The notes below the pieces were generated by a model, which saw only the letters and a list, made by a program, of their open reading frames with translations, did no database searches and was not told where the DNA came from. The position numbers were made by a program, and so were the translations under genes. From Ruminococcus albus 7 = DSM 20455 (lineage in GTDB: Bacteria; Bacillota; Clostridia; Oscillospirales; Ruminococcaceae): a DNA stretch of 32,000 nt. Position 1 is the first letter of the stretch. The number at the start of each line of letters is the position of its first letter. The stretch lies in assembly GCF_000179635.2 (NCBI RefSeq), contig NC_014825.1, positions 270,001 through 302,000 on the forward strand, written 5' to 3'. Shown one piece after another: positions 10,391 to 26,968 of the stretch.

Positions 10391-10426
10391 AAAACGGCTC
10401 CGGAATATTTCATCCAGAGCCGTTTT
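10391..10426 (-). terminator. Rho-independent terminator of the giant gene/operon
   Basis: On the minus strand, AAAACGGCTCTGG-loop-CCGGAGCCGTTTT is followed by TAT, giving a T5 run. It starts 9 nt after the stop at 10435. A second hairpin, AACTTTGAT-N9-ATCAAAGTT, lies at 10358-10384. Confidence 0.75.
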
Positions 10427-10434
10427 CGGGTTAA

Positions 10435-13400
10435 TTATGGGTTGCTTTTAGATTGCTCAATAACAGTAGGATATACCTTTGCATTGGTGTATACCAAATA
10501 ATCAGTAGGCTTATTACCAATTGTTTCGCCACTGCCATCAATCAACTCGGCTTCAAGAAATACTTGATAGTTTGCATATTCAGTGAAGCCGCTTCCGGTA
10601 ATCACATAGTATTGAATTGTTGCACTATAAATCTTATCAGTTGCAGGATCTATTGACATTTCATAGATATATGTATCGTTTGTGCTTTCGCCAATCTTTG
10701 TTAATGAAGTATTGCCAATTTTTAAATCAATACCAGAAAGATAATTTGAAATATCACTTACTTTGACATACTCAACTTTAGTAATAGCTGCATTGGCAAT
10801 TTGAGGAGTATCCGTTTTCTTATTTAATGTTAAAGTAAATCGTATTTTTCTTGTTGTTGCGTGTGTTTCGTCCTCAATTGCCGTTGCATTTAATACCGCT
10901 TCCGAGTCTATCAACATAGCAGTTCTATCGTTGTTTGTGCCGTTAGAGGTTCGACCATTTACACCCAGCCTTGAATAGTTCTTACTCTCCTCGCCTATGG
11001 TATCATAGATGTCTAATTCTCTTTTGGCTTTGTAGGTTAAAATCGAAGCGTTTGCTGATTCTCTGTAATAGTAGTAATTATTTGGTGCAAACGGTTTTGT
11101 CATACTTGTATGCGTAAGCTGTGTACTGTCATAAGCAAGATTTGATGTGGCAGAGACCTTTACACCAACACGAGGATTTGAAGTGAGTTTTTCAGGAAAT
11201 TCAGCTTGAATATCTGAAAATACCATGTCTATATCAGCAGATACTGTTAAGGTGTAGTTGCTTGCATTTAGCAGATTAGACATCACGTTAGTTGTGTTTA
11301 CGAGTATATAGTTTGATTGCTTATCCACCACACAAGCAGTAGCTGAGCTATTTCCTATTTTATAGGCAGCTGTGCTGTTTGTAGCATCATAGCCGGCGAT
11401 CTCATTTACTACACTTCCGTCCTCGCCATAGCAGTTCAATGAAATATCGAATGCATGATATAGTGGTTTGCCGCTATCAAGTAAATATGATCTCGCTGTA
11501 TCATTTGTTAATCTGATAGTGGTTTCTGCATTAACTTCAATATGCCTATTGGAATCGGTGATTTGAACCTGAGTATTTCCTAATGTGTAAGAGGTTGTCT
11601 GTTCATACAAATCAGCAATAAGAACATTGTAAGGTGAATTTGAAGTTCTTGCAGCAGATTTTGTTCCGGTCAACCGTGATGGTGAGTCAATTCTATAAAA
11701 ATATAGTTCACTATCATAGCCGTCAACCTTTGGAACATACATACTGATATAGTAATCTTCGTTCAGAACATAACTATTTGAAACGGACAAGTTGATATTA
11801 CCGCTGCCGCCAACATATTCATAATAGTGCTTTATTCCGTTGTTGTCTATACGATATACACTATACTCATTATCTGTGACCGTATGACCTTCTGCGAATG
11901 TCAGCTCATTATACATTCCTCCTGTATCTGATTCTAATGTTTCAACCTCGATTTCCTTTGCAATCATTTTATTAAAGCTGCTTACGGAAAATGAAGTACC
12001 ACCGCTATCACTTGTGAAGTTAGTTAAATCAATCTTCCAGCCTGCTTCACCTAAAATATAACCGGTTTCGCCGGAATCAGGCAGAGCTTCAAAGTCATCT
12101 GCTGATGCATAGTATACCTTATCTGAATCTCCGTTCGGGTCAACAAGTACCATGTAAGTATCATCCGGCAGCTTATACGAAGCTATCTGCGTGTTGAATG
12201 TCACATACTTGTTATGATTCCATTTAAGATTTCCAGCAGAAAGCAGGATATTCAAGTCTTCTGCTGTATAGGAAAATCTGATGTATTGTGTAACCCAGGT
12301 GTTAAGGCTGTCAACGTGAAGACGATTATTGCTTGCCATTGCAGCTTCATAGTCAGAAACAACTGATGGTGTCTGATATGTAACAGAGTTTGTATCGGTC
12401 AGTGCTGCAGCCGAGAAACTGAATGTCATCTGCTTGACTGTATATACAGGAACATACAGATGATAAGCTACATCAGTATGATCTGAGTCAAAAGGATCGG
12501 TGAATTGAACGTCAATCAGCGTAAATGTGTTTTCTTTTCTTGCTCCCGAATCAGCATTTGCACCACTTAAAGCGAATACTCCATTATTAAACGTCAGACC
12601 AGGAGCATAATCAGGATCATCTGTATCAGTTATAACACTAAACTTTCCGCCGCTGTACTTGCAAGTGTTTATTGCAATATTATAATAATTGCTTGAAGTT
12701 GTATAGTCGTTGGAAGTATTTGTTACTAACTGAATATAGCGATTGATAAGATTAGTTGTCTCTGTGTTGTCTGTGTTTGATATAACAACCACAGCAAAAT
12801 TGTTTACTCCTGTTGGCAATGAGCCTGCCTCGGTTTGATAAGTCGAGATACGATCTCCGTCTTCGCCTGCTATGTGCTTCATGTAATTATCAATAGATAC
12901 GCCCGTATTATCATCTCTTGTCGGAATAGGATCATCAACAAATGAAGTATAACGTCTTGTATTTGTTGTGTCGCTAAGTTCCGAATAGATTTTAGCTGCC
13001 ATAGTTTGGTCGGCAGTCTTACCGCTGTATCCTGTGATTGATGAGCCGAAAAGCACAGCACCGTCACCTGAAATGATTTCATTAGTGCCAACAGCAGAGT
13101 GTGGATTGATATTAACATATGGAGCTTTAGGCATTCCAACATTGTTAGTATCATTGAAATTAGATACTGTGTTATTGGCTGATGTCTTACTCCGTCCGTC
13201 ATAATCTGCGAATACGAAGCTTGCATTATCGAAGTTCTCCCTATTGCCTACGTTTTTAGTAAAACCGTTTTCATAAACAGCCATACCCGAGAACTGAATA
13301 GAGGTTGTATCATCACTTCCGTCAACATAGCCTACCCAAGCACCCATATTAGTGCCTGTTACAGCTTCTACATCATCAAGTTTGATATTATAGCCGAGGA

Positions 13401-16400
13401 TTTTGTTTGTGCTTGATGCACTTTTTCTGTCAATTCGTCCGATAGCACCGCCGGCATAATTACCGGAATCACCCATAGTACAATTAATAACAGAACTATC
13501 GTGAATATAGCAGGTTACAGAACTATTATTAGCAAATGAACCAGAGTAACCAATGAATCCTCCACAATAAGTACCCTTAATGCTGTAATTTGAAACGGTA
13601 CTATCCTGAATGAGAATGTTAGGATCGCCGTTATCCAATACCAATGCTCTACCGATAAATCCGCCTGCATAGTTTGCATCAGTTGTATAGACGGTCACTG
13701 CCTCTATTGTGTTTGGTGAAGCAGAATTACCCGTCACTTTACAATTGTTTATGGCGATTGAATAAGGTGTATAGCCTGTTGTTCCCCATTTGCCGCCATA
13801 GATACCGCCGACAAATTGACCTTTGAAATTGATATTTTCTATTGTGCAATTCTCAAAAACAGCATAACAGGTCGGCACATAATCGGGTATAGGATCGCCT
13901 GCCGTGTGACCATTTTCTGTTTTTTCATAAGCACCGGAAGTTCTCGACTGCATAGCTCCGCAAATTCCGCCGGCAAAACGTATTCCTCCGCCGCCAATCG
14001 TAACAGGGCTGCTGCTATCACTTGATTGTATCTTCATATTGTAAGCCTGACAGCCGTCACCTGCGAAACCAACAAGTCCTCCTGCTGATGAAAGGTATTC
14101 TGCATTAGCTGATTCAAAGCCGATAGATTTCAAACCTACTGTTGAATAGCTTGCTGAATTACCCTGAACGATTACCTTTCCTTGGAAACATACACCTACA
14201 AATCCGCCTAAACCATTTCGGGCTTTTTCGGAGCTTTCCTGATCGGAACTTGAATTCATCTTCATTGAAAGATTTGTTGCACTGCACTGTGTCGCTGTGA
14301 TAATGTTTGTCTCTACACCATTAACAGCTTTACCAACATTGCCGGAATAGCCGAGAAGACCGCCTACGGCACTTGAACCGCATACTGTCAGGTCATTCAA
14401 TGAGATTTGATCAAAAGTAATATTCACATCAGTCAAACTTGCACCGCAGACACCACCCACGCTCAGAAATCTTGCAGTTGCCGATGCAACAATATCCATT
14501 TCGTGTGTTGAAGCGCTGTAATCGTTACTGAAAATTTCAGTATTTACAGAACCAGAGAGAGTGAAATTGGAAATACTGCTGCTTGCATTTTTGGTTACTA
14601 TGCTGTCAAACAAGCCTATTCCGTGGTTTGAATCCGACTTGCTGACATTATTAGTACCGCTGTCTGCACTCAAAATTTGGGTTGTAGTTGAATGAAGGTT
14701 ATTGAAGTAGTTGTCATACTCAAACTTATTCAAGTATATATCAACATCTATTGTGCACTTAGACGCAGTAGAGGTAAAAGAGTCAACCTTCATTTTACTT
14801 CCTGCTACATAGTTTCCAACACAACCTAATCCACGGAAACTATCAGGCATGACATAGGAAGAACCTGTAAGACTTATGTCGTAATATCCTGTTGATGATG
14901 TTACAAAGCGAGCAGGATAGCTGTATGTGATTTCGTCATATTCTTCGCCTGTCTTCTCATAGAAATCCAGCTGCGCTCCATTACCTCCACCACCTTGTGC
15001 CTGACCAGTGAAATGATTGCCATTTCTTAAACCTAAGTATTTCCTATTATCTGAAGTAGAACCCTTTATTTCCCATTTTCCTGCCGCTTCTCCTGAGGTT
15101 ATTTGTGTTATTTCGAAGTTGTATGAATTATTAGATGAAATAATATTTCTACTTGTACCATTTTCAAATGCAATATAATTAGAACCATTATTAAAAGATA
15201 TTGTATAATCATTGCCACTTATTTTAGTAAATGTTAACGGTAATTTTGTTGTATTATCAGAATTAACAGCTTGAAATCCTTTCGCATTAGAGTAAGTACC
15301 TGTTGTACTGCTTAAAAACATATTTCCAAATGCGATGTATAGTTCTTTTCCATTGGGATCATCGCCTGAAAACAGTTTTACTCCCGAAGCATGATGAGTG
15401 TTTGTGGAAGTTCCGTATGTATACCACTTGATTATATATGGTAAAGCGGTATTAGCAGCCGTATCTTTGCTTGCAAAATTATCATAGTCCGTTACTGTGT
15501 ATTTATCCGTGACCGCAGTACCCACGTCACTATAATCCGCTATATGGCTCATACCGTAAACATTAGTATTATTAATTCCATACGAAAACGAATTTACATA
15601 AGCATTGCTGTTAGACGTTGTAGCTGTTCCTGCACCAGACTGCGTTATAAGCGACAGAATGAAGAGTGCTTGTGCATTAGGAACCGTTATCGTTCCGTCT
15701 GCTGTTGCACTTGTAGGTGGTGTGACAGAAAGTGAATTAGCTGTTGTTATAGTCGTATACTTCTGAATATCGGCAATAGAATAATGCTTTTTACCGTTTT
15801 TCAGAGTGTGTTGTGTTCCTGTTCTTGCAGCACCTGCGTCACTATTAGCATCATCGTGATAAGTGCCGTTTTCGGTCACTGATAATTGATTTGATTCATT
15901 GACCGCATAACCGTTGATGACACGTCCGACAATCGGATTTACATAAATTGCTTCCTCAGCGGAATCCTGTGCAAGATTATGTGTTGTATTAGTCTTGTAA
16001 TATACGTTAAGTCCCGTATTAGCTACAGTTGTTTTTGAGGAAGTCATATTTTTGAAAATAAGACCGCCATAAACAACAACACCCACATAACCGCCGACAG
16101 GCACTATTGTACCATAAGTATTTGTTCCGTTATCTGTCAACTGTATCGCTGTAGAGAAAGATTCATCGTTCTCATCACCATCGGTGTCGGTATAAGAATA
16201 TCTCACATAGCTGTTGTCAATGATATTGTCGCCGCCCATAATTTCGCCAATGATTCCACCGTAATACTGACACTGAGAATTATAACCAAAATAAGCAGCA
16301 CTGTTAGTAGCAGCGGACTGAGTACGCACGATAGTATCTGTGTCAACATCAATATTAATGTCTTTTATAACGCTTCCGTTAGAGACATTGATGAGCGGAT

Positions 16401-19400
16401 AAGGGCTATTGTTCGTGATAGTCCATTTTGGAACGGCATTGCTTGCACTTGTCTGTTCTCCAACAATAACTCCTCGGAAAGCATAATTTCCATTTATTAC
16501 TGTTGTACAGCCTAAACCGACATAGTTAGCACCAAGAGTAATATCACTGTTTATCTTATAATATGCACTTGCAAGGTACAGACGAACATTATCAGAAGTC
16601 CATGTGTAAACCGTTGCAGGGCTTGTTGATGAATCAGTATAGACGTATTTTCCGTTGTTATCACCGGATGTAGCAAGCTCAAATACAGCGCACCCAGTTT
16701 TGCTTGCACACCAACGATCACCTTTTGCATTATTTGTAATTCCATTGAGCTGCGTTTTAGGCAGACGTATGCTCTGCATATCACTCGGCTCACCGGAGGA
16801 GATGAATTTGGCAATAACTACAAGATTGTCACCTGATACAACATAAGGGTGGTTATAAGTGCCGCATCCGGTCTCAGGACCGGTCTTTTCGACATTGACC
16901 TTCAACTCTCTGTTATACATTTCATTGGCATTTGTTGCTGTGAATGCTACGGCAACATAAGGCAGCCAACCACTTGAGAAATTATATACTCCTCCTGTTC
17001 CCGATATGGGGTTCGTGTAGGCACGATTTGAGCCGGAGTAGCAGTTTTCAAGGCTAACATCATTTTCTCTGTATTCCAAGGAGTCCTTAACTTCTTTGCC
17101 GTATGTTACATATCTGTCTGCTACTGAATCAGCATCGTCTCCGTCCTCCCAATCCTCTGCATAGGTATAGTAGTATTCAAGAGTTGCTGTCTGATTAGTT
17201 TTGATAGAATGCAAAAATACAGCATCATTAAATATAGACCTTGATGTGTTATATGCCGTATCCAAACCGCTGTTTCCTGATAATGCAGTAGTTCTTGCAT
17301 CGAGTTTGACATGAGAAAACTTTATAGTAAGATCATTACCCGTTGCACTGCCTATAAGACTGCTTGCAACAGGGAGAGTGCCGGTATAACCGCTTCCCGA
17401 ATAAAGATTATTTATAATGAGCTGAGGAGCAGCAACGGTATCACTTTCTCTAACTATATTATTGATAAGCAAATAACCGCCTGTATATGCACCGTTATCT
17501 GTTGTTTTAGGAGTTATTCCGGCAAGTGCAATCGAACCGGTTTCGCATATGAAATTACCATTCATCACCTTGCTGATAATAACACCGCTATATCCATTAG
17601 CGGAATTTGTTGTCTCATCAACCGTACCGTCAAGACCAAGAAATGTTCCGGCAAGCGATAAATCACCTGTTACCGTTATTGCCTTGCCTGTTTCTAAATT
17701 CATAAATAATCCCGAATGCATCAGGAAATGCTGATTTACAGCACCAGGGTCACGGATATAGCTGTCACCATTGATTACATTCTCAGCAGTAGAGTAGATT
17801 CCGCTATAATCAAATGTAAGTGAAAGATCACCTATGGTATAGGTGTCAGCATTTTTTAGCGGATAGAAAGAAAGACCTGTAAGATTGGCAGTTCCGCTAA
17901 AGGTTAATATACCTGTTTTAGAATCCGCAGCAATCGTTGTACCAAAGCTTTCTCCCTCGCCTTGAATGAATTCATCTGCAATATTGGAAGCAGCATACTT
18001 GCTTACACTCCACAATACCAGATTCTGTCCATAATCTGCGTTTGACATTACATCAAGATTGTAGTAGTATCTTGATTTTCCATTCGCATACTTGGCAGCA
18101 TTTATAGCAGTGATATTTGTGCTGGCTGCCCTTGAAATCTGGTTCTGATATGTACCCTTGACAGTTATTTTTGCTTCCGTTCCGCTTCGACTACTGTTCG
18201 TATTTACTGATACAACGCCCCCGCCGCCTGCAATCACATCACTGGCTGAATAAGCAGCAAGTTCGTCAAAATCGCCTATACTATTTGGTAGTGTTATATC
18301 AGCATTCGTTAATTTATATCCGGAATTCAGAACGTCAAGATACAAGCCATCAGTGCTGTTATAAGCCTTGTTGACAATTATGCCGAGTGATGTTCCGCCG
18401 CCATTAGTCATAGACATCTTTTTTATGGAAAGTGAATTTACTGTCCACTTGCCGGTGGCTACATAGCAAATAACACCAACGTTAGCAGCAGTTTTGGATA
18501 AAACGGTATTATTGATTGAACTTGTTCCCTTTACAGTAACTCCATCAATGGTCGTAGTTGTATTCATCCAGGCATAACCAAGAAATCCACCAGCTGTTTT
18601 CTCAGCACAGTTATTAATCACACAGCCATTGAATTCTACATTTCTAACGTTTATTTTACGGTCATCATAGCTGCCATTTGAAATGATATAACCAATAAGT
18701 CCGCCGCAATCAGAATTATCACCAATAACAGTCACATTATCTACATCAGTATTCATTCCAACAGTTAAGATATTACTGCCGCTTTGTTCTATGTTTACTA
18801 TGATGCTTTCAGATGCGATTTTGCCTATAACACCTCCGTAAACCAGCCAGGTTTTATGAGAACCTGTAAACACAAATTTAGGAGAAGCAGTAGATGTTCC
18901 TGTAATAGTAATTATTCCATTATCGGTGTTTTCATCAACATACCCAATAAAGCCGCCAATGTTCTTACCTAAATCCTCGGTGCCAGGTGAAATAGCTCCT
19001 TCATGGTAATTAACTGTCAAAGCGTTAGTCCCGCTTGCTGAAACTGTAATTGCATTAAGTGCAGTGTTTCCGTGTGAGCGAGCAGCGACAGCACCAAAGC
19101 TCATGCCGTCAGCACCCGCATTGCGAATATTGATGGTTCCGGCAATATTTAGGCTATTGACCGTACCTGTTCCTGTTGTATCGTTTCCAATTACAGAAAA
19201 GAGACCGTTATACTGATGACGATAAATTTGACCTATACCTTCATCAGTTGAAGATGAACTAATACCGAAACCATATTTTTCTCCTGTTGCTAAGGTTATG
19301 GTATTGTTTCCGCCACTGAGTGTTCCAATGAACGTTCCTACACCGCCAATATCGGAGCTGGTTGCACTTGAAGCCGCAACGCCCTCACTGACAGTTATAC

Positions 19401-21687
19401 CTGTACCGTCACGCATAAAACCATTGATGCCCGTTCCGGAAAGACTGAATCCACTTGAAATGGTCAGAGTTGTACCAAGAAGATACGAACGGGTATTATT
19501 GCCTGATGTAAATAATAGGCAGTTGTATCCGGAGCCTTGATTGAGCTGAATATTGAGAGCTGTTCTTACAAAATCATCGGCATTACCCATAGATGGTTTG
19601 GCAGCAGCAATTGTTGCAGTATGATTTGTACTTGTACTGTCAAAATAAATAGCATTGGTTGAAGTGCTATCATCAATACTGCGTACAACCTCGCCCCATG
19701 TGCCGAGATCATCTGAAATTGCTCCACTTGACCGCTTGAAAGACCAGCCGCTACCATATGAGTTGCCGTCAGAACCATTACCAAGTGCATATACAAGAAC
19801 ATTATCATTATAGCCTACAAGCTGTCCATAGCTTGCATAACGCAAGCCGTCAGCATCTGTGGTAGCGTATGCACCGTTAGGCTTTGCACTTGTCATGTCC
19901 GTAATACCACTGAAACGAAGAACTCCGTTATAGAACTGTCCTACAACTCCGCCACCGTTAAAACCAGAGGTATCTGTTACCGTCAGCGTAAAGTCGCCAA
20001 GGTCAATAAAATCACCGTAACTTGCAGAAGTTGCGCCTACAAGCCCACCGAAAAATGCATAATTGTTGCAGGAAGTGCCTATGGAATCCCTGCTCTCCGT
20101 TCCACTTGCGGTTATAGCTACATTGTCAGCCTTAACATACGCAGCTACATCAATATATCCTATCGCTCCACCAAATGCATTGAATGAGTCGTCAGAAGCT
20201 ACAGAATACTCTAATTCGCTAAGTTCAAGGCTGTTTGTAAGGCTATCAGTTGTATATCTGCCAACAAGACCGCCAAAATAACCGGTTTCGTCATATGTGT
20301 TACCTGAACCAGATGTTGCAGTCAATGTAGCGTGTCCTGAAGAAGTGGTATCTGTAATTGTAAGGGTATTTGGTGCAGATGATACCATTTTATTTTCAAG
20401 AACACCGAAAAGACCTCCGCAATATCGCCCATAAACAGAAGCCTCGTTACTGTAATCTTTAATATCAAATGTATTGCTCGCCGTTACGTTTTCATAGTAA
20501 CCGAACAAACCGCCGGCACCAGCCGCACCTGTCACGCTGCCGCCGACAGGGATAGATGTTGCTGAAGAACCTCCAACCGTAAATCCGCTATCCATATTAA
20601 TTATTGCTTCTGATGTGATATTTCCGACAAGACCTCCGGAATAAGCCGAGGTCGAGACAACACTTTTGGAAGCAGATGCAGAAGACATAGCAAGAAGGTT
20701 TATTCTTGCATTACCATTCATAGAGCCTACAAGCCCGCCCGCATTACCGTAGGCAGATGTAATGCTGTATGATGATGAGTTATCAGTATATGAGAGGTTA
20801 AGTATCGAACCGGTCTGCATTTCACCGCATATAGCGCCAACATCTGCGACATAGTAAGAATCGCTTATTGAGGCATTTGATACTACATCAGCAGCAGAAC
20901 TATTCGTATATGTCAAGTTGACCTCTGTATCAGCAGTAATATCTCCAATAACACCTGAATACGTTAATGCGTTTGTGCTTACCGTTTCAACATTCCAATG
21001 TGCAGGAGTTGACGAACTATTGTTGTAAACGTGTTGAGCGAATAATGGAGCGCTCGTATCCGCACCTACGTTTGAAAGTCTTGCAAATTGTATTTTTATT
21101 TCAGGATAGTAATATGTATCTGTATCCACGTCATGAACACGGGAATTGCTCAGAATTTTTACAGAATTATTGACATGAGAAAACAGAGGTATCCCATATG
21201 TGCTTAAAGGGAAAGCGCCCGAACCATTATCAGGGAGAGTTATTGTTCCGTTAAAAGGATAATCATCATTGCCAAGACCTACAAATCCCTCCGGTATCTC
21301 TCCACGTGAACCCGTATCAGAGCCAAATGTCAACGTCAAATTATCGTTTTGATGAGCATCTGCAAACTGTTTGGTGACCTGCTGAGATATAAGAGTACCT
21401 TCTTCACCTTCGGGGTCTTGTATCATTTCCTCAACAGTGATCATACAAGTATCATCGGCATAGTAAGAACAATAGTCGATAAAATCATATGGTGTTGAAA
21501 AAGACACTTCGCCTATATTAAAGCTGTCAGCCGCAACCGCATTCGCCTTGATGGTGGAAGCTGTAAAAATAGACGGAAGTTTTGGAAAGTGAATAGGTAG
21601 ATTCATCATCTCATCAAGCGGCATAAGATTGCTCATCATAACCGTTGCAGTCAGAAAACTGACAAACCTTTTATGAAGTTTTTTCAT
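10435..21687 (-). CDS. Giant (3750 aa) secreted GLUG-motif repeat protein, putative beta-helical adhesin/fibre tip
   Basis: This uninterrupted 11.25-kb ORF starts with GAGGTGA SD + ATG, 18 nt after the upstream gene. The N-terminus is basic then hydrophobic (MKKLHKRFVSFLTATVMM...). Dozens of GG(L/F/I/V)(V/I/F/L)G repeats (AGGLVG, FGGLVG, CGGLIGY, AGGFLGY, CGGFIGY...) fall in at least four clusters, matching the GLUG motif. The protein is rich in T/S/N/G. It has no LPXTG or other C-terminal anchor. Confidence 0.75.
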   Translation of the reverse strand: MKKLHKRFVSFLTATVMMSNLMPLDEMMNLPIHFPKLPSIFTASTIKANAVAADSFNIGEVSFSTPYDFIDYCSYYADDTCMITVEEMIQDPEGEEGTLISQQVTKQFADAHQNDNLTLTFGSDTGSRGEIPEGFVGLGNDDYPFNGTITLPDNGSGAFPLSTYGIPLFSHVNNSVKILSNSRVHDVDTDTYYYPEIKIQFARLSNVGADTSAPLFAQHVYNNSSSTPAHWNVETVSTNALTYSGVIGDITADTEVNLTYTNSSAADVVSNASISDSYYVADVGAICGEMQTGSILNLSYTDNSSSYSITSAYGNAGGLVGSMNGNARINLLAMSSASASKSVVSTSAYSGGLVGNITSEAIINMDSGFTVGGSSATSIPVGGSVTGAAGAGGLFGYYENVTASNTFDIKDYSNEASVYGRYCGGLFGVLENKMVSSAPNTLTITDTTSSGHATLTATSGSGNTYDETGYFGGLVGRYTTDSLTNSLELSELEYSVASDDSFNAFGGAIGYIDVAAYVKADNVAITASGTESRDSIGTSCNNYAFFGGLVGATSASYGDFIDLGDFTLTVTDTSGFNGGGVVGQFYNGVLRFSGITDMTSAKPNGAYATTDADGLRYASYGQLVGYNDNVLVYALGNGSDGNSYGSGWSFKRSSGAISDDLGTWGEVVRSIDDSTSTNAIYFDSTSTNHTATIAAAKPSMGNADDFVRTALNIQLNQGSGYNCLLFTSGNNTRSYLLGTTLTISSGFSLSGTGINGFMRDGTGITVSEGVAASSATSSDIGGVGTFIGTLSGGNNTITLATGEKYGFGISSSSTDEGIGQIYRHQYNGLFSVIGNDTTGTGTVNSLNIAGTINIRNAGADGMSFGAVAARSHGNTALNAITVSASGTNALTVNYHEGAISPGTEDLGKNIGGFIGYVDENTDNGIITITGTSTASPKFVFTGSHKTWLVYGGVIGKIASESIIVNIEQSGSNILTVGMNTDVDNVTVIGDNSDCGGLIGYIISNGSYDDRKINVRNVEFNGCVINNCAEKTAGGFLGYAWMNTTTTIDGVTVKGTSSINNTVLSKTAANVGVICYVATGKWTVNSLSIKKMSMTNGGGTSLGIIVNKAYNSTDGLYLDVLNSGYKLTNADITLPNSIGDFDELAAYSASDVIAGGGGVVSVNTNSSRSGTEAKITVKGTYQNQISRAASTNITAINAAKYANGKSRYYYNLDVMSNADYGQNLVLWSVSKYAASNIADEFIQGEGESFGTTIAADSKTGILTFSGTANLTGLSFYPLKNADTYTIGDLSLTFDYSGIYSTAENVINGDSYIRDPGAVNQHFLMHSGLFMNLETGKAITVTGDLSLAGTFLGLDGTVDETTNSANGYSGVIISKVMNGNFICETGSIALAGITPKTTDNGAYTGGYLLINNIVRESDTVAAPQLIINNLYSGSGYTGTLPVASSLIGSATGNDLTIKFSHVKLDARTTALSGNSGLDTAYNTSRSIFNDAVFLHSIKTNQTATLEYYYTYAEDWEDGDDADSVADRYVTYGKEVKDSLEYRENDVSLENCYSGSNRAYTNPISGTGGVYNFSSGWLPYVAVAFTATNANEMYNRELKVNVEKTGPETGCGTYNHPYVVSGDNLVVIAKFISSGEPSDMQSIRLPKTQLNGITNNAKGDRWCASKTGCAVFELATSGDNNGKYVYTDSSTSPATVYTWTSDNVRLYLASAYYKINSDITLGANYVGLGCTTVINGNYAFRGVIVGEQTSASNAVPKWTITNNSPYPLINVSNGSVIKDINIDVDTDTIVRTQSAATNSAAYFGYNSQCQYYGGIIGEIMGGDNIIDNSYVRYSYTDTDGDENDESFSTAIQLTDNGTNTYGTIVPVGGYVGVVVYGGLIFKNMTSSKTTVANTGLNVYYKTNTTHNLAQDSAEEAIYVNPIVGRVINGYAVNESNQLSVTENGTYHDDANSDAGAARTGTQHTLKNGKKHYSIADIQKYTTITTANSLSVTPPTSATADGTITVPNAQALFILSLITQSGAGTATTSNSNAYVNSFSYGINNTNVYGMSHIADYSDVGTAVTDKYTVTDYDNFASKDTAANTALPYIIKWYTYGTSTNTHHASGVKLFSGDDPNGKELYIAFGNMFLSSTTGTYSNAKGFQAVNSDNTTKLPLTFTKISGNDYTISFNNGSNYIAFENGTSRNIISSNNSYNFEITQITSGEAAGKWEIKGSTSDNRKYLGLRNGNHFTGQAQGGGGNGAQLDFYEKTGEEYDEITYSYPARFVTSSTGYYDISLTGSSYVMPDSFRGLGCVGNYVAGSKMKVDSFTSTASKCTIDVDIYLNKFEYDNYFNNLHSTTTQILSADSGTNNVSKSDSNHGIGLFDSIVTKNASSSISNFTLSGSVNTEIFSNDYSASTHEMDIVASATARFLSVGGVCGASLTDVNITFDQISLNDLTVCGSSAVGGLLGYSGNVGKAVNGVETNIITATQCSATNLSMKMNSSSDQESSEKARNGLGGFVGVCFQGKVIVQGNSASYSTVGLKSIGFESANAEYLSSAGGLVGFAGDGCQAYNMKIQSSDSSSPVTIGGGGIRFAGGICGAMQSRTSGAYEKTENGHTAGDPIPDYVPTCYAVFENCTIENINFKGQFVGGIYGGKWGTTGYTPYSIAINNCKVTGNSASPNTIEAVTVYTTDANYAGGFIGRALVLDNGDPNILIQDSTVSNYSIKGTYCGGFIGYSGSFANNSSVTCYIHDSSVINCTMGDSGNYAGGAIGRIDRKSASSTNKILGYNIKLDDVEAVTGTNMGAWVGYVDGSDDTTSIQFSGMAVYENGFTKNVGNRENFDNASFVFADYDGRSKTSANNTVSNFNDTNNVGMPKAPYVNINPHSAVGTNEIISGDGAVLFGSSITGYSGKTADQTMAAKIYSELSDTTNTRRYTSFVDDPIPTRDDNTGVSIDNYMKHIAGEDGDRISTYQTEAGSLPTGVNNFAVVVISNTDNTETTNLINRYIQLVTNTSNDYTTSSNYYNIAINTCKYSGGKFSVITDTDDPDYAPGLTFNNGVFALSGANADSGARKENTFTLIDVQFTDPFDSDHTDVAYHLYVPVYTVKQMTFSFSAAALTDTNSVTYQTPSVVSDYEAAMASNNRLHVDSLNTWVTQYIRFSYTAEDLNILLSAGNLKWNHNKYVTFNTQIASYKLPDDTYMVLVDPNGDSDKVYYASADDFEALPDSGETGYILGEAGWKIDLTNFTSDSGGTSFSVSSFNKMIAKEIEVETLESDTGGMYNELTFAEGHTVTDNEYSVYRIDNNGIKHYYEYVGGSGNINLSVSNSYVLNEDYYISMYVPKVDGYDSELYFYRIDSPSRLTGTKSAARTSNSPYNVLIADLYEQTTSYTLGNTQVQITDSNRHIEVNAETTIRLTNDTARSYLLDSGKPLYHAFDISLNCYGEDGSVVNEIAGYDATNSTAAYKIGNSSATACVVDKQSNYILVNTTNVMSNLLNASNYTLTVSADIDMVFSDIQAEFPEKLTSNPRVGVKVSATSNLAYDSTQLTHTSMTKPFAPNNYYYYRESANASILTYKAKRELDIYDTIGEESKNYSRLGVNGRTSNGTNNDRTAMLIDSEAVLNATAIEDETHATTRKIRFTLTLNKKTDTPQIANAAITKVEYVKVSDISNYLSGIDLKIGNTSLTKIGESTNDTYIYEMSIDPATDKIYSATIQYYVITGSGFTEYANYQVFLEAELIDGSGETIGNKPTDYLVYTNAKVYPTVIEQSKSNP

Positions 21688-21705
21688 TATCTGTTCACCT
21701 CACAA

Positions 21706-22797
21706 TCATGATGAAGAATTCTCACTATGAAATTCGCAATCAATAAAGTTAGATGCACTATTTGTTCCAATGTACTGTGTTTCGCCATCAACTTTATATA
21801 ACTGTATTTGGTATCTGTTTATATCAGTGGAGTCAACCATTAATGTTACCATTTTCCAGTTTGCACGAGTAGCGTTCTTGATTATAGAACCCGTTTCAGC
21901 AGCTTCACCATTGCTGTCATAAAGAACAAATTCGTTTCCTGACAGCTCACTAAAGAAGAACTCGTTTATCTCAAATTTGGTTGAATCCCACATTATGTCT
22001 ACCGTTCCGACACCGCTTCCGGTTAAAACATAATTATAAAAATCATAAGACACACTTGAACAATCATCTGACTCAACCAGTTCTCCTGTCCATGAAGCAG
22101 CTTCCGCTGTACTTTCAGCAGTTCCGAAATAGTTACTAAGAGTTGTATGTAAAGATGCAGGGGACGAAGGAACTGCCTCAACATAAATATAGAACTCAGG
22201 TTCGGTCTTTTCTTGTTCAGCATCATCAAGAATTATCTTGAATGAATCAGTAGAGCTTACCGTCCCTTTAAGAGCGCAATTGGTGGTAAACGTTGTACTA
22301 TAATCTGACTCTGTAACAAGGTTGATGGCATCACCGAGACCAGTTGCATTCTCATCGTCTTTTATGAATTGGATGGAATAGGTTCTCTGCTCGTTAGTCC
22401 CTAATTTCAACTTAGAAATGTAGTCTGCTTTATCAGCCCCTGTGTACTCTGAAAGTTTTACAAAATCATTACCGTTTTTTATTGCTAAAGATGCATTCAA
22501 AGTATAGGTGATATTATCAGGATTTACTTCTAAGGCATTTTCCTGAGCAAAATTACAAACTGTAATAGTATATGCCGTTGAGGATAGTCGCTGAGAAGTT
22601 GCTGATGATTTCAAAGAATTAGATGAAAACATCACACTGTCTGCCGGTCTTGTGGAAACTACACGTTTTACAGAATTAACACCGGTATATGATGCAAAGA
22701 CCACGAAAACACTTACAGCAAACAACGTACTAACAAGCCATACCAGTGCCCAATGCTTTTTCAGCCGTTTCTTAATGCTTTCAAAGTTTACTTTCAT
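21706..22797 (-). CDS. Operon protein E: 363-aa secreted/anchored protein with a degenerate TasA-type N-terminal motif (minor fibre subunit candidate)
   Basis: The N-terminus is KKRLKKHWALVWLVSTLFAVSVFVVFASYTGVNSVKRVVST, that is basic, then TM, then FASYT, then a short beta-like segment. An AAGGGA SD is present. The gene lies 33 nt after gene D and 18 nt before the giant gene. Confidence 0.55.
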   Translation of the reverse strand: MKVNFESIKKRLKKHWALVWLVSTLFAVSVFVVFASYTGVNSVKRVVSTRPADSVMFSSNSLKSSATSQRLSSTAYTITVCNFAQENALEVNPDNITYTLNASLAIKNGNDFVKLSEYTGADKADYISKLKLGTNEQRTYSIQFIKDDENATGLGDAINLVTESDYSTTFTTNCALKGTVSSTDSFKIILDDAEQEKTEPEFYIYVEAVPSSPASLHTTLSNYFGTAESTAEAASWTGELVESDDCSSVSYDFYNYVLTGSGVGTVDIMWDSTKFEINEFFFSELSGNEFVLYDSNGEAAETGSIIKNATRANWKMVTLMVDSTDINRYQIQLYKVDGETQYIGTNSASNFIDCEFHSENSSS

Positions 22798-22830
22798 GAT
22801 CTCATCCCTTTCTATAACTTGATTTCACTT

Positions 22831-23610
22831 TTATTCGGTGGTTCGGCTGGCTGTAATGTAAATGATGTCTGTTTCTTTATTATTTGATGCTGCATTCCAT
22901 TTGGTAAAGTTCGTAGAGGAGCTTTCAGAAGCCCAACCTATTTCCAAAATATAAAAGTCGTGATTAACGTCCCGTGTTTCTAATTCCTGAACCTGTGAAT
23001 ATATTGGAACTGCATATATCTCAGGCTTATCATTTCCGTCATAAACAAGGTCATAAAAATCATCACCTTTTAGCCCAAGTATTCTTCCATAGTAATCCTC
23101 GTTATCCTCATCAGGATTCAAATCAACTAAATCTAAAGGTTCGGCTACCGTTTTTCCAGATTCAATGGTTCTTTTATAGTTTACGGTTTTATCTCCAACA
23201 GGTGATTCATAAGTAACAATATCCGTATCAGATGCCAATGCTTCTTCTGCTCTGTATAGAGTATATGTGAAAGGAATATTTGTAGTATGAGCAAGCTGAA
23301 TATCGTAATATGTTTTTGAATTTCCTGTTATTACACCAAATACATAACATTGTGGTTTCCCCGTCTTCTGAATATTCTCCAGGTCGATGTTACTAAGCTC
23401 AAAATATTCAACAGTATCACCATCACCGGCACATAAGTCAAGGCTGGGTGGCTCTTGAACTTTCGTCATTGTTTCGATTTTACTTGTATATGAAAGCCAC
23501 GCATAGACAGGTACTGCTACCATAAGAAAAAGGGTAGCAACAGCGGCAATGGCGGCTTGAATCTTCTGTGCAGTTGTAAGTTTATTGATAAATTCCTTCA
23601 TTTGGTTCAT
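22831..23610 (-). CDS. Operon protein D: ~259-aa protein with a TasA/SipW-type-like signal (minor fibre subunit candidate)
   Basis: The N-terminus ...AAIAAVATLFLMVAVPVYAWLSYTSKIETMTKVQEPPSLDLCAG parallels the TasA/CalY layout ...GGTFAYFSD...AGTLDL. I prefer the ATG at 23610 (MNQMKEF), 8 nt after AAGGAGG. The GVG start at 23619 in the track, a GTG, is too close to the SD. Confidence 0.55.
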   Translation of the reverse strand: MNQMKEFINKLTTAQKIQAAIAAVATLFLMVAVPVYAWLSYTSKIETMTKVQEPPSLDLCAGDGDTVEYFELSNIDLENIQKTGKPQCYVFGVITGNSKTYYDIQLAHTTNIPFTYTLYRAEEALASDTDIVTYESPVGDKTVNYKRTIESGKTVAEPLDLVDLNPDEDNEDYYGRILGLKGDDFYDLVYDGNDKPEIYAVPIYSQVQELETRDVNHDFYILEIGWASESSSTNFTKWNAASNNKETDIIYITASRTTE

Positions 23611-23623
23611 CAAAGCCACCTCC

Positions 23624-24613
23624 TTATGATACGGAGACTGTCATCGACAATAATAGATAACGTACTCTCGCACCTATGATGTTATCAGCTTGATTGTATC
23701 TTCCTCCGTAATATAGGTAGTTACTGTTAATATCTGATATAGACACATTGTCAGCAGTTGTAATGCCTTTCATAAAGTATTGTGGATTATCTTCGATATA
23801 ATCAAGAAAATCGCTATCATCACAAAATGGGTATGTAACTTCAACATCTTCATTAAGAACATCATCGTGTTCTGTGACGGTGTGCGTATTCAGCAGATCG
23901 CTAAAGTTGTTTACCCAAACCCAATAGATATTTACGGGGATTGTTGTATCTTTACCCGTGTACGTCTTATCTGAAAGAAGTCGGCTTAATGAAGTAGTAT
24001 TCTTTATTAGTCCTGAGTATGTATCCGTAGCCAGATCATAATCTTCAAATAAAAGAATATGACCATTCAGATAATTGATGACATCAGCATCATTGGTTGA
24101 ATCAAGCTGTACCATTGATGTTATATTATTCTCCGTTACGGGATTATAACCTATCAATTCAAATGAAAAGTCTAAATCAACCGAACTTACTCTCGGCGTA
24201 ACATAGAAAGTTACATAACCTCTGCAATCAGGGTGAATACCGTCATCTTCAACGCCTGTAATTGAGTGATAGTTGCCTATATTCTGTTCCAGACCGTTGG
24301 AGTCAGTGCCGTTCATCTTCCATATGATTGCTGTATCATCGTGTACTAAATCAAGATAATCATCATATACACCATTATTTCCATTGGTAAGTACTGAGAT
24401 CTCATATTCCGGACCCTTTATAGATACTTTCATACCGCTTGCCGAGTTTTCAGAATTATTTGTAAACCAAGCTATCGAGGAAAAAATCAGCATAATAGTG
24501 CTTAAAACAAGCATAGCTCCCATTTTTATAAGAGCTGCCTTTTGCATTTTCTTACGCTCCAACAATTCCTCAGAGGCAGAATCCGCAAGATTTATATTAT
24601 TCTTTTCATTCAT
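23624..24613 (-). CDS. Operon protein C: ~329-aa protein with a TasA/SipW-type-like signal, paralog of protein B
   Basis: The N-terminus is KKMQKAALIKMGAMLVLSTIMLIFSSIAWFTNNSENSASGMKVSIKG. It shares blocks with protein B, listed in the findings. I prefer the ATG at 24613 (MNEKNN), which follows GAGGTGG. Confidence 0.55.
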   Translation of the reverse strand: MNEKNNINLADSASEELLERKKMQKAALIKMGAMLVLSTIMLIFSSIAWFTNNSENSASGMKVSIKGPEYEISVLTNGNNGVYDDYLDLVHDDTAIIWKMNGTDSNGLEQNIGNYHSITGVEDDGIHPDCRGYVTFYVTPRVSSVDLDFSFELIGYNPVTENNITSMVQLDSTNDADVINYLNGHILLFEDYDLATDTYSGLIKNTTSLSRLLSDKTYTGKDTTIPVNIYWVWVNNFSDLLNTHTVTEHDDVLNEDVEVTYPFCDDSDFLDYIEDNPQYFMKGITTADNVSISDINSNYLYYGGRYNQADNIIGARVRYLLLSMTVSVS

Positions 24614-24633
24614 CTGCCCCACCTCGCTTATCA

Positions 24634-25653
24634 TTACTCGGCATAAGTGCGAACGTTAAATCCGAAGTATTTTGTATTTTCAATAATCAGCTTATCGCCG
24701 TTATCGTAATAATCGCTTAGAATGTCATAGTCGGTCATTTCCGTTCCGTCGGGAATTGCTCCGATTTCTGCGGTACACAGGAACTCGTCAGGATTGTTCT
24801 TGATATATTCAAGCATTTCAGCCTGTTGGTCGCTGTTATCAAACAACGCTCCGTCAGCCTGAGTATTGACTAATTGCTCATAATATTCTGCCCATATCCA
24901 ATAGACCTTTATCTTGTATTCTCCGCTGGCGTTCAGATCGTCCATGTGTTCGCTTGTGCGGTATATCATTTCGCCGTTTTCAATCAGACCGCTGTACTTT
25001 CCGTTGCAATTTTCCCTAAAGAAAAGGATATGACCGTTCAACAGCTCGTCAATATTGTCAAGACATTTACGTTCGGTAGTGTCAGAACAATCCACCTCTG
25101 ACATCTTCACCAAGCTGCCGTCTGCAAGCTCCGTAACAGCAAACACATCATATGTAATATGAATAGAGAGGTCGGCATCTGCTTTCTTAGGCTTGATATA
25201 AAATGTGGTAGAGCCATAGGAGCCGGGGAGCGTGACCGATCTGCCGTCCTCCTGTTTCAGATACATAGCTGTGTTGCGGTTGAAAGCAGATGTTTTCAGG
25301 CTATCGGAATAACCGTTATCCTGCATAAACTTTGAGACTTCTTCATTGGTGTTCGCTTCAAAATCTTCATCAACACGCATTTCATAGTAGTCCGATCTCA
25401 TAGGCATAAAGAAATCAGATATAGCTTCTTTCGGAGAAGTTATCTTACCGCCCGAATGTTTGACTGCGATTAGGTACATTGTGAATAATATCAAAAGGAC
25501 TATGCTGATAAATGACATTAGAGGTGACAGCGAACCCTCCACCTCGATCAGCCGACTATCCTCGGCTTTATATTCCTCCGAAAACTCATAATCATCATCT
25601 GATATTTTCCTTGATTTGGTATGCCGAAAATGAGATTTTCTTTTCATACGCAA
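24634..25653 (-). CDS. Operon protein B: 339-aa signal-anchor membrane protein, paralog of C without the AWFT motif
   Basis: A charged ~45-aa N-terminus is followed by the TM helix LMSFISIVLLILFTMYLIAV and an extracytoplasmic domain homologous to C. The start is either TTG at 25653 (5 nt after GAAAGG) or ATG at 25647. Confidence 0.55.
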   Translation of the reverse strand: MRMKRKSHFRHTKSRKISDDDYEFSEEYKAEDSRLIEVEGSLSPLMSFISIVLLILFTMYLIAVKHSGGKITSPKEAISDFFMPMRSDYYEMRVDEDFEANTNEEVSKFMQDNGYSDSLKTSAFNRNTAMYLKQEDGRSVTLPGSYGSTTFYIKPKKADADLSIHITYDVFAVTELADGSLVKMSEVDCSDTTERKCLDNIDELLNGHILFFRENCNGKYSGLIENGEMIYRTSEHMDDLNASGEYKIKVYWIWAEYYEQLVNTQADGALFDNSDQQAEMLEYIKNNPDEFLCTAEIGAIPDGTEMTDYDILSDYYDNGDKLIIENTKYFGFNVRTYAE

Positions 25654-25718
25654 TCGAACCTTTCACGATATTTTCTCAGGTCAAATTGCGATATAATTAT
25701 TATACTACTTCACTATAT

Positions 25719-25747
25719 ATTATATCACAAAACGCCTTGTGTTTCAA
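25719..25747 (-). promoter_or_regulatory. Strong SigA-type promoter with extended -10 in front of genes B-F
   Basis: The minus strand reads TTGAAA (25742-25747), a 17-nt spacer ending in TGA, then TATAAT (25719-25724). Confidence 0.6.
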
Positions 25748-25798
25748 TAGTATAGGCGTAGATTTTACCCGATTTTCACTTATTCCTGTTATGAAGTA

Positions 25799-25829
25799 AA
25801 CCCGCCGAGCATTAGCTGTCCGGCGGGTT
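25799..25829 (-). terminator. Hairpin after the major-subunit gene (partial terminator/attenuator)
   Basis: On the minus strand, AACCCGCCG-N13-CGGCGGGTT is followed by TACTTCAT. The stem is GC-rich and 9 bp long but the U-tract is weak. It lies 48 nt after the stop of gene A. Confidence 0.5.
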
Positions 25830-25876
25830 AAGTATTCTATCAGAGTAGATCAGTTTTGTATTTAGCCTTGACAGCT

Positions 25877-26968
25877 TTACTTAAGACCGAATACGATCTC
25901 AACAGTCAATTCATCAAGATCAGAATAAATATTATCAGTATTACAGTTAGAGTCTTCGCCCTCAAACCAAATGTATACATCAATTTTTGCACCATCAGAT
26001 GTTGTAGCCGGAAGAGTCGCAAGGCTTAAACCATCAGTAGTATTCGATGCAGTAGTTGCAGTCCAAGTGGATACAGCTGATGTTCCTGTCAAATCAAGTC
26101 CTGCTGTTCCAGTTGCCAACGATGCCGCTGCACTTGTTACTGCCTTTGTAGAAGTATCATATGCAGACGCTATAAAATAACTACTATCAGCACCAGCAAC
26201 TGGAGCAAACGTCAATGCACTACCGCCAGTAGGCAACACAGCAACACGGAGAGTTTTATCTAAGTCGTGTGCAAGAGCATCTCCGTCTGTATTCTTATCC
26301 AGTCCGCTTACCTTTATTTCCTTTACATAAAGGGTATCATCACCATCGTTAGTCAAATCTGCATTGAGTGTTATTGCGTTAGAAGAAGACGACTTAACAT
26401 AGTAAGTATACTTGATAAATGCTCCATCATCATTATCGCCTATTGCAGCCGCCGTACCATCTTTTTCCTTGTAGTAGATATTTGCTTCTGCATCCGTTCC
26501 AGCTGCCGCAGCAGTCGCCTGTATAAAATCAAGTTTTCCACTCGAAAGATTATTTCCACCAGCAGTAGTTGCTAAAGTGAAAATTTCATAACCAGCACTG
26601 CTAAGTTTATCACTTTTAGTATTAGCTGCGGTTCCTTTTGCCGATGCGTTAGCGGCAACGCTGTTAGCATGAGCCCATGTTGACATATCTGCACTGGACA
26701 TAGGAATAAGTGTTGCACCAGCATTAGCTGTACTCTTAGCCTCTTCATCCCAATTGGTATCGCCCGAAGTTGCTACTTCATTGATAAGCAAGCCTTTCTC
26801 AGCCTTTGCCTTGACTTCCATACCTGTCACCTGAACTTCTTTGTTCATTGTGAACCATGCGAACGTACTTGTCGCCAGCATTGTAGCGGAGATCATGAGC
26901 ATTCCGGCAGCGGGAATGAGCTTCTTCATAGGAGAGCTGCCCTTTGTATTCTTAGTATTAGCTTTCAT
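25877..26968 (-). CDS. Operon protein A: 363-aa A/T/S/G-rich secreted protein with a TasA/camelysin-type signal, candidate major fibre subunit
   Basis: The N-terminus is MKKLIPAAGMLMISATMLATSTFAWFTMNKEVQVTGMEVKAKA, compared with TasA/CalY ...GGTFAYFSD...GTLDL. The C-terminus KIDVYIWFEGEDSNCNTDN...LTVEIVFGLK resembles, from memory, the camelysin/TasA C-terminal F.D.G.DQN..QG ... F.A.Q layout. It is the first gene, is followed by its own hairpin, and has a GAAAGGAAC SD. Confidence 0.55.
   Translation of the reverse strand: MKANTKNTKGSSPMKKLIPAAGMLMISATMLATSTFAWFTMNKEVQVTGMEVKAKAEKGLLINEVATSGDTNWDEEAKSTANAGATLIPMSSADMSTWAHANSVAANASAKGTAANTKSDKLSSAGYEIFTLATTAGGNNLSSGKLDFIQATAAAAGTDAEANIYYKEKDGTAAAIGDNDDGAFIKYTYYVKSSSSNAITLNADLTNDGDDTLYVKEIKVSGLDKNTDGDALAHDLDKTLRVAVLPTGGSALTFAPVAGADSSYFIASAYDTSTKAVTSAAASLATGTAGLDLTGTSAVSTWTATTASNTTDGLSLATLPATTSDGAKIDVYIWFEGEDSNCNTDNIYSDLDELTVEIVFGLK

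Follow-up and report, generated by a model that had tools for sequence, protein, structure and literature searches.

The tapA-sipW-tasA system of Bacillus subtilis is a polymer system, and TasA fibres are capable of self-assembly in vitro. Among the key fibre degraders are Ruminococcus albus and R. flavefaciens, in which cellulosomes and type IV pili account for only part of the attachment to plant material. In the sipW-bsaA-bsaB-bsaC system of Clostridium perfringens, the closest clostridial analogue to have been studied by experiment, a disordered N-terminal strand of one subunit is predicted to enter the next subunit and is locked there by an isopeptide bond, and the TasA/BsaA superfamily as a whole is extremely divergent in sequence (PMC11580942). 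From another direction, a census of McrBC systems by Bell et al. (eLife 2024, PMC11090510) named an McrB clade CoCoPALM, predicted a function in pilus assembly and deferred its analysis; the clade is given two sentences there, and pilus subunits, a link to EAL proteins, a giant adhesin and cassette mobility are not described. Our literature search found no follow-up on CoCoPALM and nothing on the subunit genes considered here, on Rumal locus tags, on SipW in Ruminococcus or on donor strands in Ruminococcus. Here we analyse a stretch of 32,000 nucleotides from R. albus 7 = DSM 20455 (NC_014825.1, positions 270,001 to 302,000; hereafter the window, whose own numbering is used below), which carries a block of six genes, A to F. 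We consider it probable, if by no means settled, that A-F represent the structural module of a SipW-dependent surface fibre or matrix system in Ruminococcus and its clostridial relatives, served in trans by machinery encoded on the chromosome. An earlier sequence-only reading of the window was right on SipW-type signals, on a fibre/adhesin module and on mobile cargo, and was unsupported or wrong on a TasA-type fold and on absent machinery.

All six genes lie on the minus strand: A at 25877-26968 (363 amino acids, aa), B at 24634-25653 (339 aa from a TTG start), C at 23624-24634 (336 aa), D at 22831-23619 (262 aa, or 259 aa from an ATG), E at 21706-22797 (363 aa) and F at 10435-21687 (3750 aa). 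The N-terminal motifs that had been read from the sequence, TFAWFT in A, SIAWFT in C, VYAWLSYT in D and VFASYT in E, are present as described, together with the segments that follow them (SGMKVSI in C, PPSLDLC in D, KRVVS in E, where the motif is preceded by a hydrophobic h-region). Both motif and layout are conserved within every protein family, across 19-85 homologues per family, so these motifs are not chance occurrences. The family consensus is a common module consisting of a basic stretch, a hydrophobic helix, [YF]-A-W-F and a short alternating segment. Iterative searches and hhalign comparisons on open reading frames (ORFs) from 82 loci showed that A and C match with 98% probability over 57 N-terminal columns only and A and D at 95% over about 66 N-terminal columns, while A and M239, a 239-aa A-like membrane protein of the machinery cluster described below, are full-length homologues (98.6%). 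E against A reached 7.6%. B, which was linked to C by jackhmmer at 6e-69 and is missing from the modules of most species, is a recent, lineage-specific paralogue of C that has lost the AWF motif, as judged from the sequences. C and D are candidate minor subunits.

A is the founder of a large unannotated family and the candidate major secreted subunit. Its N-terminal module (residues 1-55; 26804-26968, minus strand) comprises a basic n-region, an h-region at residues 17-35, TFA/WFT and a strand-like VQVTGMEVKAKA, and is the most conserved part of the family, with A37, W38, F39, M41, N42, V45 and A54 invariant. The AlphaFold2 (AF2) model of A is all-beta, with a predicted local distance difference test score (pLDDT) of 81 and a predicted template-modelling score (pTM) of 0.79. 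Residues 35-55 form the only unstructured internal region of this monomer model, with pLDDT below 50 and without secondary structure. That the most conserved segment is unstructured in the modelled monomer suggests an intermolecular role for it. The h-region of A is only mildly hydrophobic and signal-like (hydropathy 1.45), whereas those of B (2.59), M239 (3.15) and E are strongly hydrophobic and anchor-like. A has a single Cys, and the proposal that it is rich in A, T, S and G was borne out (46%). Combined with its first position in the block, its signal-like h-region and a possible terminator/promoter arrangement of its own, these features support the suggestion that A is a major subunit; from its sequence, A looks like the major, secreted one. 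A is 100% identical to R. albus 7 ADU24359/ADU22760 and has at least 245 close relatives, exclusively from Clostridia of the rumen or gut, and an exhaustive profile search of the family collected 4850 representatives of 50%-identity clusters at E<=1e-3. Nevertheless, none of A-F matched Pfam or NCBIfam at E<=1, including Peptidase_M73/TasA, TIGR04088 and GLUG, none of 51 tested A homologues matched any relevant family, and the A-family profile had no match among PDB sequences. Foldseek of the A model against PDB and BFVD likewise returned nothing at E<0.001, only noise, the best PDB hits being leukocidins with template-modelling scores of 0.14-0.18.

The case for machinery acting in trans comes from the neighbourhood of A-family genes. 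In a public contig carrying A (L001), a divergently transcribed cluster lies immediately upstream of A. This conserved seven-gene cluster encodes an EAL protein, M239, a SipW-type peptidase, a membrane McrB-like AAA+ protein, a fusion protein and two small proteins. The separate SipW/archaeal-type signal peptidase (223 aa) scores 94 bits against TIGR02228, whose cut-off is 51.85 bits. The fusion protein (989 aa) joins a DUF2357 domain (McrC N-domain; residues 68-167, 31.9 bits against a cut-off of 23.3) to an E/R/K-rich coiled coil of about 400 aa, transmembrane segments and a second SipW-type peptidase (residues 772-927, TIGR02228 at 88 bits). Both peptidases match the SipW family NF046067 (2.4e-31 and 9.7e-28), keep their Ser, His and Asp motifs and find human SEC11A/C as best PDB relatives. 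The fusion protein has no nuclease domain, and instead combines a membrane-spanning coiled coil with an extracytoplasmic signal peptidase. The ATPase (526 aa; L001:5184-6764) consists of a hydrophobic, transmembrane N-terminus, a continuous helix at 52-124 and an AAA+ core. Its Walker A, Walker B and G-T-x-N-N-D-D signature are invariant, the NNDD being readable, against the shortened Nx(x)D signature of CoCoPALM, as NxD followed by D (as in PMC11090510) or as NxxD. McrB was the sole significant family when the ATPase profile was compared with PDB (6.9e-5), and the protein matches the PADLOC McrB-like candidate PDC-M26A at 2.8e-39; Foldseek of its model (pLDDT 54) gave only weak P-loop/AAA+ matches. 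The EAL protein opens the cluster, and some of its catalytic motifs look degenerate by eye. In R. albus, a 546-aa membrane GGDEF protein is encoded convergently at the end of the cluster (L001:1-1442; L098-L101:15323-16963).

A pattern scan with one genome per species gave 80 A-family loci, and tblastn placed the cluster beside A in most of these. The counts that follow refer to the 39 loci flanked by 9 kb or more on either side, "near" meaning within 10 kb. The machinery cluster was near an A-family gene in 28 of these 39 loci, and C-D-E-F stood beside A in 19. Ten loci had both, nine resembled the window in having C-D-E-F without nearby machinery, and two had neither. The co-occurrence of the A-C-D-E-F set across species is thereby confirmed (19/39), with B missing from most. 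C lies downstream of A in 31 of the 80 loci, and E, in the 19 loci where it was found, is always between D and F. In many loci A stands alone beside the machinery, with C-F missing, indicating that A has a role independent of F. Across species, identity is 55-87% among the machinery proteins but 26-32% in A, C, D, E and F; the ATPase has a median of 77%, and a 74-aa machinery protein (L001:1487-1711) one of 87%. The ATPase has more than 8000 database relatives at E<=1e-10, the best 120 of which are 78-100% identical. A-family genes are thus genomically tied to SipW-type signal peptidases, a tie supported by context.

The same machinery is present in R. albus 7 itself. Its 3,685,408-bp chromosome encodes exact copies of the ATPase, the SipW peptidase, M239 and the fusion protein (ADU22763-22766), and a second A-F copy (ADU22754-22760) directly adjoins them. 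The search for a SipW-type signal peptidase elsewhere in the genome, which had been suggested as a check, therefore yielded two, both chromosomal. The statement that the window contains no sipW, sortase/LPXTG, pilus ATPase or usher gene is correct by Pfam/NCBIfam, tblastn and motif scan, and no pilin or type II secretion system family match was found among the window proteins or in the machinery cluster. However, the broader claim that there is no dedicated assembly machinery holds for the window only, because the R. albus 7 chromosome carries the cluster; at genome level it is refuted, also by the 28 of 39 linked loci. Homologous clusters do then largely adjoin machinery, as had been named as a sign against the idea, but this is not a known pilus pathway, since the machinery is itself uncharacterised.

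We compared A-E with TasA-type proteins using a TasA reference checked against 8AUR (mature N-terminus A28) and a TasA-family profile of 55 sequences, all with the Peptidase_M73 model PF12389. All 120 TasA relatives listed carry PF12389, and none of A-F matched it at E<=1, nor did any of the 51 A homologues at E<=10. TIGR04088, TIGR04089 and TIGR04090 had no match among A-E or these homologues, while the TasA control scored 38 bits against TIGR04088 (cut-off 19). Against the TasA-family profile, hhalign gave 25% for A, over 28 signal columns only and with TFA/WFT in register with TWA/AFN, and 29.5% for D, in register over 71 N-terminal columns that include PPSLDL opposite GTLDL and PvyAWF..L.I opposite GTWAAFND; none of these is significant. 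C, E and M239 reached 0.3%, 1.3% and 0.1%. Foldseek of the A model against PDB did not recover TasA (8AUR, 5OF1) or the archaeal bundling pilin. With neither a family match nor a Foldseek match for A, a TasA-type fold is unsupported, and profile, hhalign and Foldseek evidence all fail to back TasA/camelysin membership (PF12389, NF046066) of A-E. A TasA/camelysin-like C-terminal motif proposed for A found no support in profile-profile comparison either: the A/M239 family has an invariant W-F-E-G-E-D-x-x-C, which we rejected as such a motif as it has no counterpart in the TasA profile alignment. Very remote homology is conceivable given how divergent the TasA/BsaA superfamily is (PMC11580942). 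The SipW-cognate layout fared better, in that the common module is real and conserved and aligns, below significance, in register with the TasA signal, but TIGR04088 does not detect it; judging by sequence, the signal layout of A, C and D resembles the SipW-cognate type. UniRef names M239 and another protein, P0065, "SipW-cognate class signal peptide", in conflict with the TIGR04088 result. We also observed that N, K and E residues of A and C have a spacing similar to that of the BsaA isopeptide triad N35/E56/K74 (in A: N42, K53 and E64, within residues 42-64 at 26777-26845). Some A paralogues have S instead of N42, a residue that is not conserved family-wide, so a "strand exchange and lock" mechanism for A and C, drawn from BsaA by analogy, is a weak lead only.

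F is a giant S/T/G/N-rich beta-repeat protein and the candidate displayed adhesin; NCBI names its chromosomal fragment "beta strand repeat-containing protein". Its description as a GLUG giant was not confirmed, as Pfam GLUG (PF07581) does not match even at E<=1. However, a GG-hydrophobic-hydrophobic-G motif occurs 22 times in three clusters (0.63 expected; at most 4 in 500 shuffles), a 35-fold enrichment of this GLUG-like GGxxG motif over shuffles. F had no match among PDB sequences. As had been noted, F has no cell-wall anchor: there is no C-terminal LPXTG, and the sole LPxxG-like string is internal, at residue 3202. The F leader (residues 1-50; 21540-21687) consists of a basic stretch, a weak h-region, LP[VL]xE[LIM], about 25 residues and AxA. 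This leader is conserved but not of the AWF type, is shared by F homologues in several loci (L017, L018, L020, L022, L023, L041, L047, L067, L070, L077, L087 and L091) and is not recognised by any signal-peptide family model. Profiles of A, C, D, E and M239 found nothing in F by hidden Markov model (HMM) search, and a resemblance of the D and F C-termini by eye (KETDIIYITA and KPTDYLVYTNA) was dropped for want of HMM support against F. In some species an F-like giant lies upstream of A and the machinery without C-D-E (L010:1-6709, where it has 3842 aa, and L046:1-10000). In this arrangement, a LytTR regulator and an ABC-2 transporter separate the giant from A and the machinery, and a Wzy_C (O-antigen ligase-like) gene lies between the A and EAL genes.

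These observations can be assembled into the following model. A, C, D and probably E would be exported through Sec by an N-terminal signal ending in the conserved AWF motif, and a SipW-type peptidase (Ser-His-Asp, endoplasmic reticulum/archaeal type) would cut at or near TFA/WF. Cleavage may free the N-terminal segment, which is highly conserved and modelled as unstructured in the monomer and could join subunits like the donor strand of TasA and BsaA. A would be the abundant major subunit, C, D and E minor or adaptor subunits and F the displayed adhesin, while M239, being A-like and strongly membrane-anchored, would be the likely base or nucleator. The machinery would be of CoCoPALM type, a membrane-anchored McrB-like GTPase together with an McrC-N (DUF2357)/coiled-coil protein bearing an external SipW-type peptidase. 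The position of this peptidase at the extracytoplasmic end of the McrC-like coiled-coil protein leads us to propose that cytoplasmic nucleotide hydrolysis is coupled to processing or assembly outside; we can only conjecture that GTPase and peptidase would be coupled mechanically or allosterically via the McrC-like transmembrane coiled coil. The EAL protein and the neighbouring GGDEF protein may put the system under cyclic di-GMP (c-di-GMP) control. The subunit genes would be fast-evolving and exchanged as cassettes, with the machinery strongly conserved.

Several points weigh against this model. Fibre, cleavage and polymerisation are proposed from genes and models, and the role given to the GTPase is pure inference. 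Neither in sequence nor in fold does the body of A detectably resemble TasA, BsaA or any solved pilin, so that the donor-strand step is an analogy. TIGR04088 does not score A-E, M239 or P0065. E shares the layout of A, C and D, with homology to them undetectable by hhalign. The F leader differs from the AWF type, and no domain that would incorporate F is recognisable in it. The E-values behind the McrB-like assignment are modest, and the ATPase was modelled poorly by AF2 (pLDDT 54) from a shallow alignment. Some of these points would fit an alternative in which A-E are processed or membrane-anchored envelope proteins forming a non-filamentous coat or docking complex that holds or matures F at the surface, with the SipW-type peptidases serving solely as dedicated processing enzymes. 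The anchor-like helices of B, E and M239, the absence of an anchor in F itself, a fold of A unlike any known pilin and the many loci with a lone A beside the machinery are consistent with such a complex. By contrast, A is typical of a polymerising major subunit in being encoded first, rich in A, T, S and G, with a single Cys and variable on a conserved module, and the modelled disorder of its most conserved segment suggests contacts between molecules. Moreover, the characterised SipW-cognate clients TasA, TapA and BsaA all belong to polymer systems (PMC11580942 and general knowledge). We consider the coat or docking complex unlikely, though less so than the other alternatives.

The lineage of the ATPase raises a further possibility, that the McrBC-derived cluster serves primarily in conflict or defence like its CoCoNuT relatives, and that A-F are decoys, receptor-masking proteins or effectors in an arms race. 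The PADLOC defence candidate matched by the McrB-like ATPase, the origin of the CoCoPALM class in a Type IV restriction census (PMC11090510) and the fast diversification of subunit genes, exchanged as cassettes and by mobile elements, would all be expected under it. However, the McrC-like partner has a coiled coil and an external signal peptidase in place of a nuclease domain, A, C, D and E match no PADLOC defence model, the EAL and GGDEF neighbours suggest surface biology under the control of c-di-GMP, and the authors who named CoCoPALM themselves predicted pilus assembly (PMC11090510), leaving a defence function improbable. Least probable of all, and barely tenable, is that A-E are genuine TasA/camelysin jelly-roll subunits self-assembling by donor-strand exchange without dedicated machinery and using the host signal peptidase: the register of the A signal with that of TasA, the in vitro self-assembly of TasA fibres, the window's own lack of machinery and the divergence of the superfamily speak for it, whereas A-E and the 51 homologues match none of PF12389, TIGR04088 and TIGR04090 with a positive TasA control, hhalign against the TasA-family profile stays at or below 30% and is confined to the signal, Foldseek of a confident A model misses TasA and the archaeal bundling pilin, and a seven-gene machinery accompanies A-family genes in 28 of 39 loci and is encoded in the R. 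albus 7 genome as well.

Returning to the trans-served structural module, the block in the window is a plasmid copy that was recently duplicated, is detached from the machinery and has kept F intact. The plasmid F (ADU24354; 3750 aa) lies on a 352,646-bp replicon, the size of megaplasmid pRUMAL02, whereas the chromosomal F is split into 2812 aa and 899 aa (ADU22754/ADU22755), and the two copies agree at 100% identity in A and E. UniRef holds two identical full-length F proteins for R. albus 7. Among public contigs encoding the exact A protein, the identical A-F block was found in at least three contexts; a third upstream context, YfhO/NUDIX/DHHW, is present in public assemblies (L002, L093). 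The 99.9-100% identity between the window and three of these contigs (L001, L002, L006) ends at 27112-27114, beyond which the flanks differ, and which marks the upstream junction of the block (27109-27114), 145 bp upstream of the A start codon and 2-3 nucleotides before the premature stop of a MacB ORF. At the other end, all public contigs with the block end about 148 bp after the F stop codon, at the end of an IS66 element. The view that the block is horizontally mobile cargo is supported by these identical copies, multiple contexts and common upstream junction. PLSDB nucleotide and protein searches with the block, A and the backbone returned nothing, the source record apparently not being among the searchable entries.

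A trace of replacement is visible where the block adjoins the machinery. There, a 69-aa remnant of a resident A-family gene (L001:9424-9633) precedes the incoming cassette and stops exactly before the AWF motif, at ...MLATST followed by a stop codon; the same remnant occurs at L099:7132-7341 and L100:7132-7341. It is followed by the A-F block in L001 and by a 408-aa A-like gene in L100, and L098 (6076-7341) and L101 carry an intact resident A-family gene of 421-424 aa. The remnant, together with the differing cassettes across strains, suggests cassette replacement by recombination in the conserved signal-coding segment, which would fit a surface structure under diversifying selection.

The arrangement of the block in the window agrees with the description of six co-directional minus-strand genes with small gaps, both in the ORF layout and in gene calls on public contigs. 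The A-B gap is 223 nucleotides with the TTG start of B, the B/C gap about 20 nucleotides with the 329-aa start of C used by other gene callers, the C/D gap 13 nucleotides if D starts at its ATG, the D/E gap 33 nucleotides and the E/F gap 18 nucleotides. The strong terminator said to end the block (10385-10427, minus strand; a 15-bp stem, then UUUUUAU) was upheld by folding against shuffles: the site after F folds at -25 kcal/mol (z = -7.48; 0 of 200 shuffles equally stable) and is followed by a U-run. A GC-rich hairpin 3' of A (25795-25829, minus strand; ACCCGCCGG...CGGCGGGTTT) may be an attenuating terminator; its region, 25760-25880, folds at -31 kcal/mol (z = -3.5), with a weak U-tail. The A-B gap also holds a promoter-like site (25719-25747, minus strand; TTGAAA, 17 nucleotides, TG-TATAAT; 11/12 matches), the top score in a regional scan. 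This site is a lead only, because shuffled sequences yield at least as many such sites as the region itself. As weak evidence, hairpin and promoter-like site would fit over-expression of A relative to B-F.

The block is also more AT-rich than its flanks, as had been estimated by eye (GC 0.37-0.44 against 0.44-0.50), and its placement between an IS66 element and a truncated efflux gene on a mobilizable element was verified by Pfam matches. The complete IS66 element (tnpA-like gene, tnpB and DDE transposase; 7897-10320, minus strand) abuts the 3' end of the block; its genes span 7897-10216, with the element end near 10300 and a terminal GTAAGCG repeat near 10290-10320. Downstream of IS66 are a ParM-like gene, NikA/MobC and a MobA/VirD2 relaxase. 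The upstream flank is an HlyD/ABC-ATPase/MacB operon whose permease (27109-27777, minus strand) is cut to a 222-aa ORF holding the periplasmic core domain only (MacB_PCD, Pfam 2.4e-24) without the FtsX part, of which no remainder was found in the window. Other window ORFs encode an 857-aa product without Pfam match (846-3419, plus strand), a DUF6291 protein with a K/D/E-rich low-complexity tail (29932-31059, plus strand), a P-II-like protein (31522-31980, minus strand) and a DnaG-type CHC2 zinc-finger protein (57-704, minus strand).

The system occurs widely, in Ruminococcus, Oscillospiraceae, Eubacterium and part of the Bacilli, and all of it is unannotated. If our interpretation is correct, it adds a new subunit fold and family to SipW-dependent fibres, gives a repurposed McrBC (Type IV restriction) motor its first functional context in protein assembly, and offers testable genes in a cultivable, fully sequenced strain (Rumal ADU22754-22766 and ADU24354-24359). 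A lesson for annotation is that "hypothetical" operons whose leaders are of AWF type call for joint interpretation with a SipW/McrB-like cluster located at a distance. More tentatively, and with the odds somewhat against it, the data may point to a new Gram-positive fibre pathway, in which an McrB-type GTPase ring coupled via an McrC-derived coiled coil to a SipW-type peptidase processes and polymerises a previously unrecognised "AWF-signal" superfamily of several thousand sequence clusters into a c-di-GMP-controlled fibre with a giant beta-helical adhesin, encoded in cassettes, this plasmid copy among them, that strains swap at the conserved signal-coding segment. Such swapping would give surface variation in main rumen cellulolytic bacteria. 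The assembly mechanism has a substantial chance of being new in kind. The machinery class had only been named in passing before, and the subunit family is without known fold relatives.

Set against described systems, the A-F module is like sortase pili and type IV pili (including R. albus GP25/CbpC) in having major and minor subunits and a tip adhesin, with a probable function in adhesion in a fibre degrader. It differs from sortase pili in the absence of LPXTG and sortase, the window having no sortase family match, and from type IV pili in lacking a G/FTLIE prepilin leader, a prepilin peptidase and PilB/PilT ATPases; the hydrophobic helix of A, C, D and E precedes the conserved motif, unlike type IV prepilins where the motif comes first. 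Closer is the BsaA system, which is also clostridial and SipW-dependent and in which a major subunit is accompanied by a minor paralogue and by a large accessory protein of adhesion type (the VWA protein BsaC, as compared with F), and whose disordered N-terminal strand is predicted to insert into a neighbour (PMC11580942, PMC7395162). However, A-E have no TIGR04090 match, N42 is not conserved across the A family, and BsaA secretion proceeds via type IV pilus proteins rather than an McrBC-like module (PMC11580942, PMC7395162). With tapA-sipW-tasA, B. cereus CalY and archaeal bundling pili, the module shares a dedicated SipW/archaeal-type peptidase linked to its clients. The likeness to TasA extends to a signal ending in a small-aromatic motif, a conserved N-terminal segment free in the monomer, a major subunit with a membrane-associated paralogue (TapA, as compared with M239) and an extracellular polymer, here predicted. 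By contrast, the mature domain has no sequence, profile or fold likeness to TasA, there are five or six structural genes including one for a 3750-aa giant, the linked machinery has two peptidases, one of them fused to an McrC-like protein, an McrB-like NTPase is present where TasA needs no motor, and the peptidase genes may be distant from the structural ones. As for CoCoPALM, the window holds only the presumed substrates and none of its genes, the link being made by conserved neighbourhood; the linked cluster shares with that class a DUF2357 McrC homologue with coiled coil, signal-peptidase-family proteins, and an N-terminal transmembrane segment and coiled coil, FtsB-like in the description of the class, on a putative McrB-type GTPase.

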